A stretch of DNA of 64,000 nucleotides from Octopus sinensis. Lineage: Eukaryota. The translations under genes and the position numbers were made by a program. Each line of letters begins with the position of its first letter. Positions within the stretch are counted from its first letter, which is position 1. Location: contig NC_043001.1 in NCBI RefSeq assembly GCF_006345805.1, positions 88,474,001 through 88,538,000 on the forward strand, read 5' to 3'. The notes beneath the pieces were generated by a model that had not been told where the DNA came from, did no database searches, and worked only from the letters and a program-made list of their open reading frames with translations. Shown one piece after another: positions 21,658 to 37,285 of this stretch.

Positions 21658-21730
21658 TCACTGCATTCAACAAATCTTAGAAGGAGTTAACCACTGCCAC
21701 CAAAATAGTATAATACACAGAGACTTGAAG
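21658..21730 (+). CDS. CaMKII: CaMKII kinase-domain exon, variant A (helix E to HRD loop; equivalent to vertebrate CAMK2 exon 6)
   Basis: ttttcAG|TCAC...TTGAAG|GTgggt. 73 nt, first base completes a Ser codon. Translates (S)[24 protein letters not shown]. Length, phase and sequence match the CaMKII exon preceding PENLLLASK. Confidence 0.95.
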
Positions 21731-22262
21731 GTGGGTGCAGGACGCAAAAATAGTGAAATTATGTTCTGTTCCGCAGCAGATATGTTCATGTGTCTCCCAC
21801 CCACCATCTTGACTGTCTGCCAGCTTGCTTGCTCTCCACCTGCTGGTCACCAGCTTGGCAAGATTCTCAGCCATGGTTCAAATGACACTAAGTTATATCA
21901 GCTGACATAGATTTCTTTCCTTTACCAGAAGGTCATATTTTACCCACAGTTCTGGCAGCAGGGTGGGGATTGGTTTCTTTTTAATTATTCACTTCTTATT
22001 TTTATTTATTTTATTTTACTATTTTGTTTCTTCCTTTTCCTCGAATATTCTTTACCCAATGTGTAAATGAACTGTTATTTCTGTGTGTGAGTATGTAATG
22101 AATCAAGTTTAAACTCTCTATACCTCAGTTATTATTGTGTGTTCATTACAGGCATATTACAGATAAACGTTCAAGCTGAACATCAACCATATCAACCTCA
22201 CTTATCTCAGTGGGTGTGAAAGTGTTATACACAGTTTCTTTTCCCTCTGTTCAAACCATAAT

Positions 22263-22299
<37 letters not shown>

Positions 22300-22397
22300 T
22301 GTGCATGTATGTGTGTCTGTGGTATGATAGAATGAACTAATACCCTATATTATTTAATAACCATTCTGTTCGTTACATATGTGTGTGTGTGTATGTA

Positions 22398-22456
<59 letters not shown>

Positions 22457-22463
<7 letters not shown>

Positions 22464-22990
22464 CACATGTATGTAGATACAGAAAGTGTGTGCACATGCA
22501 TGCAATAATGTGTCTTTCTAATGTCCAATTTCATCATGAGACATGGACTACATATTCACAATACATTTAGAGCCTGAACATTCTATGGACAATTCCCTAG
22601 AAAGATAGGATAATGCTCACACAAATTGTTTGTTGAATTAACACTAGCATCATTGAATGTATGCTATACAGGCATCAACCGAAATAGCTCATGCTGATTC
22701 ACTCTTCCTCATAGGATTATCTGTAGCTATATAATTATATGATGGTCATCACCTGGTTAGATGGTCAAAGGAGCTATTCAAAAATCAGCCAATGACTGTA
22801 TAAATATATATATATAAATAAAGTGTGTGTATGTGTGTTTATGTATGTATACATACATATATGTATACCTATATGTTTGTGTGCATCCAACCCATGCCAG
22901 CATAGAAAATGGACATTAAATGATGATGATATATATATATTATATATATATATATATATATACATCTAAGCATATATGTGTCTGTGTGTG

Positions 22991-23045
<55 letters not shown>

Positions 23046-23508
23046 CACATGTATGTAGATACAGAAAGTGTGTGCACATGCATGCAATAATGTGTCTTTC
23101 TAATGTCCAATTTCATCATGAGACATGGACTACATATTCACAATACATTTAGAGCCTGAACATTCTATGGACAATTCCCTAGAAAGATAGGATAATGCTC
23201 ACACAAATTGTTTGTTGAATTAACACTAGCATCATTGAATGTATGCTATACAGGCATCAACCGAAATAGCTCATGCTGATTCACTCTTCCTCATAGGATT
23301 ATCTGTAGCTATATAATTATATGATGGTCATCACCTGGTTAGATGGTCAAAGGAGCTATTCAAAAATCAGCCAATGACTGTATAAATATATATATATAAA
23401 TAAAGTGTGTGTATGTGTGTTTATGTATGTATACATACATATATGTATACCTATATGTTTGTGTGCATCCAACCCATGCCAGCATAGAAAATGGACATTA
23501 AATGATGA

Positions 23509-23549
<41 letters not shown>

Positions 23550-23590
23550 TAAGCATATATGTGTCTGTGTGTGTATATATATATATATAC
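22457..23590. repeat. 582-bp tandem duplication bounded by (TA)n tracts
   Basis: ATGTAGATACAGAAAG at 22471 and 23053; ORFs at 22774 and 23356 are offset by 582; copies appear identical apart from microsatellite length. Confidence 0.95.
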
Positions 23591-33240: not shown

Positions 33241-33396
33241 CTCTCTGATTGACTAATTGGCTGTGTGTGTGAATAGCATGTATCCTATTTTACTGGGTTT
33301 TGTCAATAGTTCATCTACATTGCTTGCCCTCATATCTTTAACTGTGCTGTCAACTTTAGCAGCTGGTCTCTTTACCAGATCTAAATGGGCTGGACT

Positions 33397-33431
<35 letters not shown>

Positions 33432-34688
33432 ATGCATTCCCTACATTCAATAACCTCTCATTAACATTCACCTCCTCTTCCTTGGATCAATAATGGCACG
33501 TGTACCGCATTTATTTCATATATACTTTTCCCCAAGGATGTCATAATTTGTGATGATACTCTGCCTTGTACTCCAGAACTCCTCACACCTATTTTTCTCA
33601 TTACCGAACAGTGGTTTCACTCTGTGCTATGTATACATGATGTTTGCGCGCGCACACACACATATATATCCATGAACTTTGACCTAGTATTGAAAATAAA
33701 ATAAGCACACACACACACACTTATGTGTTTGTACTAGTGTATTTGCATATATTCTTACACATACATACTCTCTTTTTCTCTCACACACACTCTCTCTCAT
33801 GTAAACATTAGCCTTTCACTTATATCATTCTATGCATACACACATGAATGCACATATATACTGACAATTCTCTACAAAATACACATTCCCAGTCATATAT
33901 CCATCTCCACACAATACAAATTTATAGAAATATAAATAAATAGTAAAGTAGTAAAACAAAGATAGGTTATTTACCACAAATACTTAATTAGAAAAGAATA
34001 AATGAACAGGGGCCAAAAAAGTGAAAAACAATGAAAGAAGTTATTAGAAATCTCTAGTATTTAATAGTTAGGAATTAAATAAAAGGCTTAAAGATTACTG
34101 AGAAAGATCAGATGCGAATACTGTGAGAGAAATGGTTAAAAAATTATTCAAATCAAAATATAAAATTATCAATTTTAGTCAATGTATCATTAGTGAACCA
34201 ACTTGCATGCAAAAACACACACACCCTTATTAGATAGACCTTCCTCTGTTTGTGTGTCTCTGTACCTCTCTCTCTTCTTTCTCTCCATCTCTCCTCCCCC
34301 TCTCCATTTCTCTTTCCCATGCATTCCCCACATTCAGTAACTAAACATTTCTCTCATCCATGTAAGAGGAAGCATGTTTAACTAAATTTAATTAAATATG
34401 TAAAGGAATGACATCCTCCTTAGTTTTCACATATAAATCAAAAAAGGATTGGAGAATTTTCTATTAGGTTCCCTAAATAAACAATATGTAAATAAAGTGT
34501 CACTTAAACTAATTAGATATAATCCCGACTATAAAGATTAGTAGTCCTAAGAGTGGTGATGATGTATTTATGATCAACATTCTTACTTAAACAATTACAT
34601 TTAAGTATTTTATATGAATGTATGTACTATATATAAACTGAAAGTATGGGTGTGTTAGGCACTGGAATGGCTATGATAGACACAATTA

Positions 34689-35065
34689 TGGCTGTATGGT
34701 TGAGAAGCTTGCTCTTCAATCATATGATCTCAAGTTGAGTCTCACTGTGTAACACCTTGGGCAAGTGCCTTCTTCTATAGCCCTGGGCTTCCCAAAGCCT
34801 TGTGAGTGGAGTCCGTAACCAGAAAGCAGATGAAGTCTGCTATCTGTATGTATGTGTGTGTGTGTACCCTTGTCTTGACATTATGTGATGGTTGTAAATG
34901 AGCATCATTTTCATATAAGCGATGTAATTGTTTCCAGGCCTCAGTGAAAATCATGTTTGGTCATAGGAAAACAGGTGGGAGGCTTGTGACAGAACAGGGT
35001 ATCCAGCCATAGAAAAACTGCTTCAACAAAATCCATCTGACCCATGCAAACATAGTAAAAATATG
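34689..35065 (+). mobile_element. tRNA-derived SINE family B
   Basis: ACCTTGGGCAAGTG..TTCT.CTATAGCC...CAAAGCCTTGTGAGTGGA core. Confidence 0.75.
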
Positions 35066-35367
35066 TAAAAATTAACACAGGTATATGTGTTTGTGTGCTT
35101 CATATCTGTAATTTCATGATGTTACAATCATGTTAAACTGTAACTAATAAGAAGGACGGTGTCATCCTAAAATAAGATCTCTTGACTAATTTCTGTTTCA
35201 TACTATATTGAATGACCAATGAAAGACCATGCACTGTCCTAGTTACTTGAAACAGATCAAACAGGTCAGTGACAATAGATAAAAAGACTATGGAAATGTT
35301 CTTTACATAAGTGAGTAATTTCCTCACCAGATTTGTATATATTGATACACATACACATACACGCACG

Positions 35368-35414
<47 letters not shown>

Positions 35415-35451
35415 TTATGTGTATACACATACCTCTATCTATCTACCTATC

Positions 35452-35536
<85 letters not shown>

Positions 35537-37212
35537 CTCACACACACATCATTGTCATCAGTTTATATCCAGTTTCCATGCTGACATATGTTGGACAATT
35601 CATTACAGTTTGAGTCCTTGTATGTGCTCTTTTAGACATGGCTGGACTGGGGACCACACCTCTATTGTTATTGGCATATTGTCTACAACTTTATGCCATT
35701 CCTCACACCAGCCACATTACACAGTGTACTGGATGCATTTTTTTCATGTCACTAGTACTAGCAAGGGTGTTGTGTCCTCATTGAGACTAAATGTTCTCCT
35801 GAACCCTACAATGTTTCATCCACCAACCTTGTTATGGTGTACAGGATGTATTTATTGTGGCATCAGTACTGGAGAGATTGTTATGTCCTGGCCAAGACGA
35901 GTCCTTCCAACCTATTATGTTTCCATTTGTTCACCCACCACTTCATAAAAGGATGCAACTTATCCTTATACCATAATTAATGAGGGTTGCCTTGTGTCTG
36001 GTTCCTCTCTGCTCTGTGTGATCTCCATTTCAAGGGAAAATGAGTTGAAAAGAACAATTGCAGAGAATGGACTAGTGTGAAGTGGAGAGAAGAGGCTGAT
36101 ATTGGTGGAAAAATGAATTGGTAAAACATGATAGATTGTGCTAGAAGAGTAATGAATGGTAATAGGAATGTATACATGGAGAGATAGGCAGCAGTAGCCT
36201 AGAAAAATACGGTTGCTGTATGATTAAGAGAGCTTGATGTTTATCACTTAGAAGCAGCCTGATGGTGAAGGAGTACTAACTAGTCAGCAGTATGGAAGGG
36301 GAAGGTAATTTGAGCTAACAAAGAGAGTACAGGTATTGAGGTGACATGGAAAGAGAATTAGTGAAGACTGTCAGTGGAAAAGTGACATAGAAGAGAGATG
36401 GGCAATGACAATGGTGTGTGCGTTTCAGGAGAGTAAATGAGGTGGAGGTTCATTACACACACGTTCGCTTGCACACACACACACATGTATATATGTATAT
36501 AAGCATGTATATGTACCCATGCATATCATGTATGTGCATATACATGTATGTATATATGTATATAGACTGAATTGGCAATCATAAGAATGTTGCATAAAAT
36601 AGCTTGATATTCATTCCAACTCCCTGTGTTTGAAGTTCAGATCCCTTCCAGGTCAACTTTATCAATCCTGAAAGGATGAAAGGCAAATAAAATACTAGTC
36701 CACTGGGCAGGTGGTGGTGGGGCTGATTAATCTTCTCTTTCTCTCTTTTATCTTTTTTTTTTCCATCTGAAAGAAATTGGCTATGATCAGACATGGGAGA
36801 AGAATGGACTCTGGTAGGTTTAAAAAAGCCCAAGACATACTGTTTTTCTTTACAGTGCCCCTACGGCTCCATCAGAAGCCAACAACTCAAAAGAATGAAA
36901 AAAGTGTGTGTGTATGTGTAAGAGCATACATTCAGATACACCTAAATGCATGTATATGGCCTGTTTCTCAATACACTTGAATAGCCTCATCAATGTCCTC
37001 TGAAGCTGAAAATCTGCCTAGCTAGTGTACAGAATAGTGGTCGGGCAAGCAAAATCCAATCCCTCTCCCCTCCATTTATCATCCAAAGCATAGCTGCAGC
37101 GGAGTTACTGCACTAGTAATGCATGGGGTAGTCAGTCAGTCAGACAGTTGTTGCTATGGTGACATGTGAGCTGCTTTTTGATCAGCAAATCCATTGTTCT
37201 TTCATATTTCAG

Positions 37213-37285
37213 TCACTGCATGCAGCAAATATTAGAGAGTGTTAATTATTGCCATCACCATGGTATTGTACACAGAGATCTGAAG
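37213..37285 (+). CDS. CaMKII: CaMKII kinase-domain exon, variant B (paralogous alternative to 21658-21730)
   Basis: atttcAG|TCAC...CTGAAG|GTgagt. 73 nt, same phase as variant A. Translates (S)[24 protein letters not shown]. Confidence 0.95.

Follow-up and report, generated by a model that had tools for sequence, protein, structure and literature searches.

Two conserved copies of exon 6 in the CaMKII gene of Octopus sinensis, probably spliced one at a time

The splicing of CaMKII is usually discussed for the linker and the hub, and the choice between exons 6A and 6B of mammalian CAMK2D is the one known alternative within the kinase domain. In mouse Camk2d, the two exons are mutually exclusive in long reads, with 6B accounting for about 10% of olfactory-bulb transcripts and being absent from heart and soleus; that study assigns no function to them (PMC12060085). 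The human delta gene has the corresponding exons 6v1 and 6v2, and in the printed human sequences the 6v2 type is the one encoded by the alpha and beta genes, and gamma encodes a type resembling 6v1 (bioRxiv 10.1101/721589). Here, a comparable pair is described in Octopus sinensis, within a window of 64,000 nucleotides (RefSeq assembly GCF_006345805.1, contig NC_043001.1, forward-strand positions 88,474,001 to 88,538,000), where an upstream copy, 6A, and a downstream copy, 6B, lie between exons 5 and 7 of CaMKII. The favored reading of this locus, with a probability of roughly 85%, is a single CaMKII gene in which exon 6 exists as two intact versions, each conserved in its own right, of which a message likely includes only one.

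The octopus and mammalian arrangements belong to the same family and share a 73-nt exon 6, its boundaries and phases, tandem copies, and what appears to be the use of one copy per message. The printed CAMK2D exon, also 73 nt, starts and ends at the same points as octopus 6A and 6B. In contrast, the residues that mark the two copies are different, octopus has one CaMKII gene while mammals have four, and the common copy appears to be the downstream one in octopus and is the upstream one in mouse. The expectation in the original prediction that the same exon is doubled in CAMK2D was therefore correct (PMC12060085; bioRxiv 10.1101/721589). Its extension to nematode unc-43 was not confirmed for C. 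elegans; the unc-43 entries seen in Table 1 of a survey of mutually exclusive exons in this species concern only alternative acceptors of exon 14 (PMC4165533). The solved UNC-43 kinase carries the downstream type, and gene models of the nematodes Steinernema and Dictyocaulus hold two exon-6 copies.

Two other described systems are informative. In tandem exon duplication-derived substitutions, homologous and frame-equivalent exons keep the catalytic residues and vary nearby ones, as in octopus (PMC8373072, PMC9741552). CAMK2D is event 41 of that catalogue, its row in the supplements gives 'Chordata' as the last common ancestor, and the listings of bilaterian events and of those in molluscs, arthropods or nematodes do not name it; the mollusc, annelid and nematode pairs described below fall outside this range. 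Human ATE1 exons 7a and 7b, with the elements R1-R5, resemble the octopus pair in being mutually exclusive and in their intronic pairing, which in ATE1 includes a helix spanning about 30 kb (PMC7797038). In ATE1, two selectors compete for one partner, as proven by compensatory mutation, whereas octopus has one predicted duplex between the two ends of the intervening intron.

The text and two supplements of PMC4494069 do not mention CAMK2, and no paper on an invertebrate exon-6 pair was found in a literature search in which subscription journals, including older CaMKII gene surveys, were sparsely covered; a prior mention of the invertebrate pair is possible. The octopus pair itself is already contained in automatic annotation and is known in kind from CAMK2D. 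What is new is its reach across molluscs, annelids and nematodes.

Locus anatomy and reading frame

Each copy is bounded by AG and GT, is entered in phase 1 and is left in phase 0, so the two 73-nt exons of identical phase with intact splice sites that were originally proposed are borne out, separated by an intron of 15,482 nt (Table 1). The copies are identical at 56 of 73 bases. Their 24 codons comprise 9 without any difference, 8 with a silent one and 7 with an amino-acid replacement, in keeping with the proposal that both had stayed open while accumulating many synonymous differences. HRDLK is the same in both. Of the 24 residues, the 6A type is marked by Gly at position 9, His at 12 and Ile at 19, and the 6B type by Met at 3, Ser at 9 and Tyr at 12.

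Table 1. Positions of the CaMKII exons and predicted elements, in window coordinates
Feature	Coordinates	Strand	Remarks
6A acceptor region	21538..21657	+	Long, pyrimidine-rich; the acceptor is the sole AG in 120 bases
CaMKII exon 6A	21658..21730	+	Upstream copy, 73 nt; end of helix E to HRDLK
Local hairpin	21729..21804	+	Prediction; 6A donor paired with 21797-21804
6A-6B intron	21731..37212	+	15,482 nt, GT-AG, repeat-rich
Long-range duplex, 5' arm	21810..21890	+	Prediction
Long-range duplex, 3' arms	36982..37138	+	Prediction; arms 36982-37052 and 37127-37138
CaMKII exon 6B	37213..37285	+	Downstream copy, 73 nt
Candidate cassette exon	45385..45429	+	45 nt, with in-frame stops; AG at 45383-45384, donor GT at 45430
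CaMKII exon 7	46702..46804	+	103 nt, PENLLL to DFG, single copy

The gene has the kinase domain, the regulatory segment with its RQET site, the hub and the exon structure of CaMKII, judged by exons 2-11, which were mapped in the genome, and by matching models that carry PF00069 and PF08332, the hub being known from the models. The exons agree letter for letter with proteins named Octopus bimaculoides and O. sinensis, and the closest solved structures of relatives are CaMKII.

With 110 kb upstream and 90 kb downstream added, 264 kb around the window were examined. This region contains a single collinear set of exons 2-5 and 7-11, all on one strand and flanked by canonical splice sites. Exon 7, the single exon encoding DFG, has one match in the whole genome, as does 6B at E<=0.001. 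A duplication of the gene was rejected on these grounds, and the view that an exon rather than a gene was duplicated holds. No third copy of exon 6 was found in the 264 kb, where the best match outside the pair reaches 41 of 73 bases; the match between 6A and 6B is therefore far above background. Haplotype collapse was likewise rejected; the flanks and intron are unique and gap-free. The window is free of N, and both N runs of the 264 kb fall outside the interval from exon 5 to exon 7. The copies do not appear to belong to different genes or haplotypes, the circumstance that the original prediction had named as contrary to it.

In-silico chains of exons 2-11 with either 6A or 6B alone are open and occur as substrings of the protein models P0023 and P0148, respectively. 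Inclusion of both exons leads to a stop ten codons into 6B, and omission of both to a stop inside exon 7, which agrees with the frameshift foreseen for such messages. In C. elegans, a survey of mutually exclusive exons reported a dependence on decay for 14 of 29 clusters (PMC4165533). In octopus, messages with both exons or neither would meet an early stop and would presumably be removed by nonsense-mediated decay. The sequence of exon 6A recurs letter for letter in isoform models P0014, P0023, P0028 and P0336. The isoform pairs P0014/P0128 and P0023/P0148 differ solely at the same seven exon-6 positions, and a Haliotis pair (P0067/P0229) shows eight differences, all within exon 6. Public octopus isoform models (XP_052823878/9, XP_052823865/6 and XP_036358792/3) already contain 6A or 6B exactly, as automatic annotation only, without description, age, mechanism or function. 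Isoform gene models are ordinarily built on RNA alignments. Two proteins from transcript-sized contigs of 2.1 kb (P0127 and P0554), as well as QHX41518.1, have the 6B peptide joined to exons 5 and 7. The reading frames and models make it likely that each message includes either 6A or 6B, with 6B as the probable default.

Conservation of the two exon types

Protein searches with 6A and 6B (the best 120 of 1707 and the best 120 of 193 matches) each returned a conserved type of their own among the matches listed. Both types are present among the listed members in 6 of 10 mollusc clusters (Haliotis, scallops, Octopus, Biomphalaria, Liolophura and Patella), as well as in the O. bimaculoides cluster, and models from Solemya, Lottia and Pinctada carry type A. 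In mis-predicted tandem models of the mollusc Nucella and the annelid Owenia, the order is A and then B.

A pattern scan of metagenome contigs yielded 88 loci, including 9 distinct contigs with two copies spaced 0.5-2.4 kb apart (L034, L039, L049, L061, L063, L074, L078, L079 and L091, with 6B cut in the last). L039, L074 and L079 are near-identical to one another. The type with Met3 and Tyr12 is always second in these contigs. The two-copy contigs that were compared had their best scores with molluscs and annelids, although the margins were small; L091 was too short to place. Of the 31 loci that span exons 5-7, 6 have two copies and represent three sequence types, and the single-copy loci include 7 that are cnidarian-like, 12 rotifer-like, 1 arthropod-like and 1 unplaced.

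Constraint on each copy had been named beforehand as a check, and it was found. Between octopus 6A and the upstream copy of L034 there are 14 synonymous and 0 amino-acid changes, and the same holds for the upstream copy of L096. In 11 positional comparisons, the nonsynonymous measure pN ranged from 0.00 to 0.20 and the synonymous measure pS from 0.58 to 1.20. In 5 of 5 loci, pN was lower when an octopus exon was compared with the copy in the matching position than when it was compared with the other one. By these comparisons, both copies are under purifying selection.

The order of the types is equally stable. Among nine position-ordered pairs (octopus, Owenia, Nucella and six loci), Gly9 and Ile19 are upstream in 8 and Tyr12 is downstream in all 9. 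In five other molluscs, the copies were assigned as upstream or downstream by sequence and hence are no test of order. A tree of 65 rows and 24 columns placed 16 of 17 A-type rows, Owenia among them, on one branch with support of 95/95; the order of its deeper forks is tentative. Because the same two types occur in the same order in molluscs, the annelid and the contigs, the duplication is, on this comparative evidence, older than the split of molluscs and annelids, and hence older than cephalopods. Overall, all available sequence tests indicate a genuine, old and functional pair.

Two further observations concern the contigs. The upstream copy of L078 (5944-6016) is strongly diverged, with Ala9 and Leu11 as in the vertebrate downstream type, and in L025, L033, L035 and L054, which belong to the same annelid/mollusc-like group, the upstream copy is missing. 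In addition, the mollusc/annelid-like L049 contains two intact 84-nt copies of exon 11 on the match strand (18811-18894 and 19434-19517), which differ at 5 of 28 residues. Exon 11 encodes the regulatory segment with the autophosphorylation site, and this is an apparent second either-or pair in CaMKII; octopus has one exon 11 in the 264-kb region.

Exon choice and the predicted effect on the kinase

Three general explanations of exclusivity were considered and rejected. Steric exclusion fails because an intron of 15,482 nt is too long for it, and incompatibility between U2 and U12 (minor-spliceosome) sites fails because all sites are GT-AG. The third is donor strength. The donor of 6A (GTGGGT) is indeed weaker than that of 6B (GTGAGT), as the original prediction stated, with 6 and 7 of 9 matches to the consensus. 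As a conserved control this difference was rejected, since both donors are GTGGGT in L034, L049 and L061.

RNA structure offers a further possibility. The region 21700-21830 folds at -38.4 kcal/mol (z -2.9; 1 of 200 shuffles as good), and the 6A donor has an unpaired probability of 0.12. The first and last 250 bases of the 6A-6B intron are complementary with a score of 46, a value that 0 of 300 shuffles reached and that sets this intron apart from the other 9 tested. Co-folding of the two ends gives 61 intermolecular pairs and an interaction energy of -28.0 kcal/mol, compared to -9.5 +/- 3.7 kcal/mol in 40 shuffles. A scan with the core of the duplex, which was picked after inspection, ranked it best of 2519 tiles, and over the whole intron 1 of 200 shuffles equalled its score. 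Prediction with the whole flank, by a method unable to span the large internal loop, gave z -2.0 and third place among 400 tiles. When the 6A donor is forced open in co-folding, the duplex extends towards the 6B acceptor. Among 28 flank pairs tested, none emerged as a competing selector pair, which leaves one strong duplex and the donor hairpin. In octopus the predicted hairpin and duplex would likely bias exon choice, and the duplex is read as a putative cephalopod-specific aid that likely biases it towards 6B.

A weaker complementarity was also seen between ~21419-21448, upstream of 6A, and ~37450-37480, downstream of 6B, with a 10-bp perfect core and a score of 30 (0 of 100 shuffles; one of the 28 pairs tested). 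Such a pairing would loop out both exons.

Exon 6 covers the end of helix E, the loop that follows and HRDLK. His128 and HRD are invariant, and the seven variable residues sit in helix E and the loop after it; residues 110-130 are helical in a low-confidence AlphaFold model. The description of the copies as 'two alternative kinase cores' was thus overstated. Position 12, His in 6A and Tyr in 6B, lies nine residues before the HRD arginine, which by residue counting is the place of Tyr156 relative to Arg165 in PKA. The residue at the Tyr156 site, which varies among Tyr, His and Phe across other kinases, holds the alphaC-beta4 loop in place (PMC11616992). Position 19 immediately precedes the HRD histidine, and the variable region of CAMK2D includes residues adjoining the ATP site (PMC9741552). 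Splicing one exon at a time would give two kinases that are seven residues apart and have the same catalytic HRDLK. Because position 12 equals the PKA site and the CAMK2D variable region is ATP-adjacent, fine tuning is the likeliest effect. By analogy, the switch would probably tune lobe coupling and the handling of ATP/nucleotide or substrate, rather than turn activity on or off. The AlphaFold models were too poor for contact mapping, a fold search returned only CaMKII with a high root-mean-square deviation, and a search of the ESM Atlas gave only generic kinase clusters.

Several observations weigh against the reading of two conserved exons spliced one at a time under structural control. Every spliced example of 6A is an automatic gene model, some of them possibly from this genome, and 6A is rare in these models (1 of 12 and 1 of 6 exon-bearing octopus cluster members listed). 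The contigs listed for four sequencing runs over 21200-38000, swamped by repeats and with conserved contigs filtered out, include no exon junction, for 6A or otherwise, and no coverage attributable to 6A. Type B is found alone among the listed members of 7 of 13 mollusc clusters (two oyster clusters, Dreissena, Mytilus, Pomacea, Mercenaria and Gigantopelta), and 4 of the 31 loci spanning exons 5-7 hold a B-type exon alone, so that type A is dispensable in some lineages. Additionally, a search of 7 other loci, all of them distant and with shorter introns, gave no intron-end duplex in any of them, and the duplex has no covariation support here. Joint opening of the 6A donor and the 6B acceptor region adds only 1.6 kcal/mol to the sum of the separate costs (ensemble energies -150.3, -133.6, -133.9 and -115.6), a coupling that is weak support for a modelled structural switch. 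Lastly, the structure models, from a single sequence and from 34 sequences, are poor, with predicted local distance difference test scores (pLDDT) of 37.5 and 58.9, so the protein effect rests on analogy.

The transcript observations would fit a 6A that is silent or decaying, as would its weaker, hairpin-covered donor and the small number of isoform models. The 6A protein, however, is unchanged relative to L034 and L096 despite saturated silent sites. The missing 6A junctions are no evidence of absence. The same run data list no 6A-6B junction, conserved contigs again having been filtered, and for exon 7 two runs have no contigs and two have one contig each, neither joined to exon 6. If the pair were instead an artefact of assembly or annotation, it would not be expected to lie in unique, gap-free sequence and to recur in other animals at spacings of 0.5-2.4 kb. 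A silent 6A or an artefactual pair is thus considered very improbable, and two functional copies remain the preferred interpretation.

Some other features of the locus may be recorded. The candidate cassette exon upstream of exon 7 (Table 1) is represented by one contig of run X19 (depth 4.6), in which its donor is joined to the exon 7 acceptor and the sequence reads on into intron 7; the 5' end of the candidate is not covered by this contig. It is possibly a poison exon or a product of cryptic splicing. A 340-nt contig of run X2 (depth 20.7) covers intronic positions 21270-21500 upstream of 6A with 4 differences, for which unspliced RNA, DNA or a conserved element are candidates. Within the 6A-6B intron, a local tandem duplication at ~22700-23400 repeats a stretch of well over 100 bases about 580 bases apart, with the same translation at 22767 and 23349. 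The octopus CaMKII models (P0023, P0128-P0161 and P0328-P0337) range from 478 to 680 residues and have many optional linker and hub inserts, including an extra insert in the hub of P0023.

Origin of the pair

The original prediction had left the choice between an ancient bilaterian switch and repeated convergent duplication. The antiquity of the pair relative to cephalopods was upheld, and neither origin is rejected by approximately unbiased (AU) tests: 11 origin constraints on the 24 columns gave p-AU of 0.24-0.83. These tests used a quick tree under LG+G4 and omitted 10 of the 13 single-exon rows.

With the tandem stretch of Owenia as query, the best 120 of 7672 matches included double-exon models from the nematodes Steinernema and Dictyocaulus, from fish delta genes and from fish and lizard beta genes. 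The listed cnidarian, insect, mite, horseshoe-crab and rotifer models have one type each, and the same is true of a single model from a brittle star and a few from Oikopleura. Among the 120 best hits of one of the searches with the octopus exons, 54 are short genomic frames of insect/mite type in which exon 5 runs without an intron into exon 6; exon 6 is therefore not a separate module there. In fish and lizard CaMKII-beta models (P0372-P0384 and P0387), a gamma-like exon 6 lies upstream of the usual exon 6, which suggests that the vertebrate pair predates the paralogs and was then sorted among them.

A pair shared by the mollusc/annelid line and nematodes is moderately probable. The nematode pairs repeat the protostome markers in order, with Tyr12 in 3 of 3 downstream copies and Ile/Leu19 in 3 of 3 and Gly9 in 2 of 3 upstream copies, and the best AU-test tree held the mollusc/annelid and nematode downstream copies together. 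Both points speak against three independent duplications, in molluscs and annelids, in nematodes and in chordates, by which this exon would be a hotspot for convergent tandem duplication. Such a history falls short of probable but is a serious contender. Lineage-specific clades gave p-AU of 0.24, 0.65 and 0.66, and convergence is common for exons of this kind, with ACOX1 reported to have arisen three times, once in molluscs (PMC8373072). In the free tree, the nematode upstream copies fall outside the mollusc/annelid A branch, although as long branches, and the upstream copy of Dictyocaulus has Ser9 and Tyr12. A protostome origin combined with a separate chordate origin is given nearly the same weight.

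One duplication in the bilaterian ancestor, with later losses in arthropods, rotifers and some vertebrate paralogs, is a tentative alternative. It would account for the doubling of the same 73-nt exon in three distant groups and for the one copy in all 7 cnidarian-like loci spanning exons 5-7. Both types persist in the fish and lizard beta genes, so an old pair can indeed lose a member, and the fusion of exons 5 and 6 in insect/mite-type frames provides a route for erasing the pair. Order-preserving bilaterian clades gave p-AU of 0.41 and 0.46; the swapped pairing, however, fits equally well (0.55 and 0.68). The vertebrate pairs lack the mollusc marker pattern, that is, Gly9 and Ile/Leu19 upstream and Tyr12 downstream in the same order. 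The exception is Met16, shared with the downstream copies of L061 and L078: all 7 vertebrate downstream rows have it, as do 2 of the 15 that are mollusc/annelid-like, and upstream or single rows never do, as a common origin would have it. The upstream copy of L078, by its resemblance to the vertebrate downstream type, points the opposite way. Octopus 6A and 6B are each closer to the fish delta upstream copy, with 4 differences, than to the downstream copy, with 6 and 7, respectively. The curated catalogue, moreover, dates CAMK2D to Chordata and does not have it among its bilaterian events (PMC8373072, PMC9741552), and no echinoderm, hemichordate or lancelet pair was seen, where sampling amounted to one brittle-star model.

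A joint reading can be put forward as less likely than not. It holds that a two-way splice switch in the catalytic lobe of CaMKII has existed since the last common bilaterian ancestor and was kept by molluscs, annelids, some nematodes and the vertebrate delta and beta genes. Insects would have lost it through fusion of exons 5 and 6, and the way in which human alpha/beta differ from gamma at exon 6 would be the switch, frozen in different positions once the gene had been duplicated. Octopus would have added a long-range RNA bridge that runs the switch across 15.5 kb.

If the pairs go back to one event, this splice switch would rank among the oldest in a synaptic kinase; if they do not, evolution would have converged repeatedly on one set of 24 residues. 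Both outcomes argue that these residues tune the enzyme. In animals with one CaMKII gene, such as Aplysia, Lymnaea and cephalopods, the switch would be testable in identified neurons without interfering paralogs.

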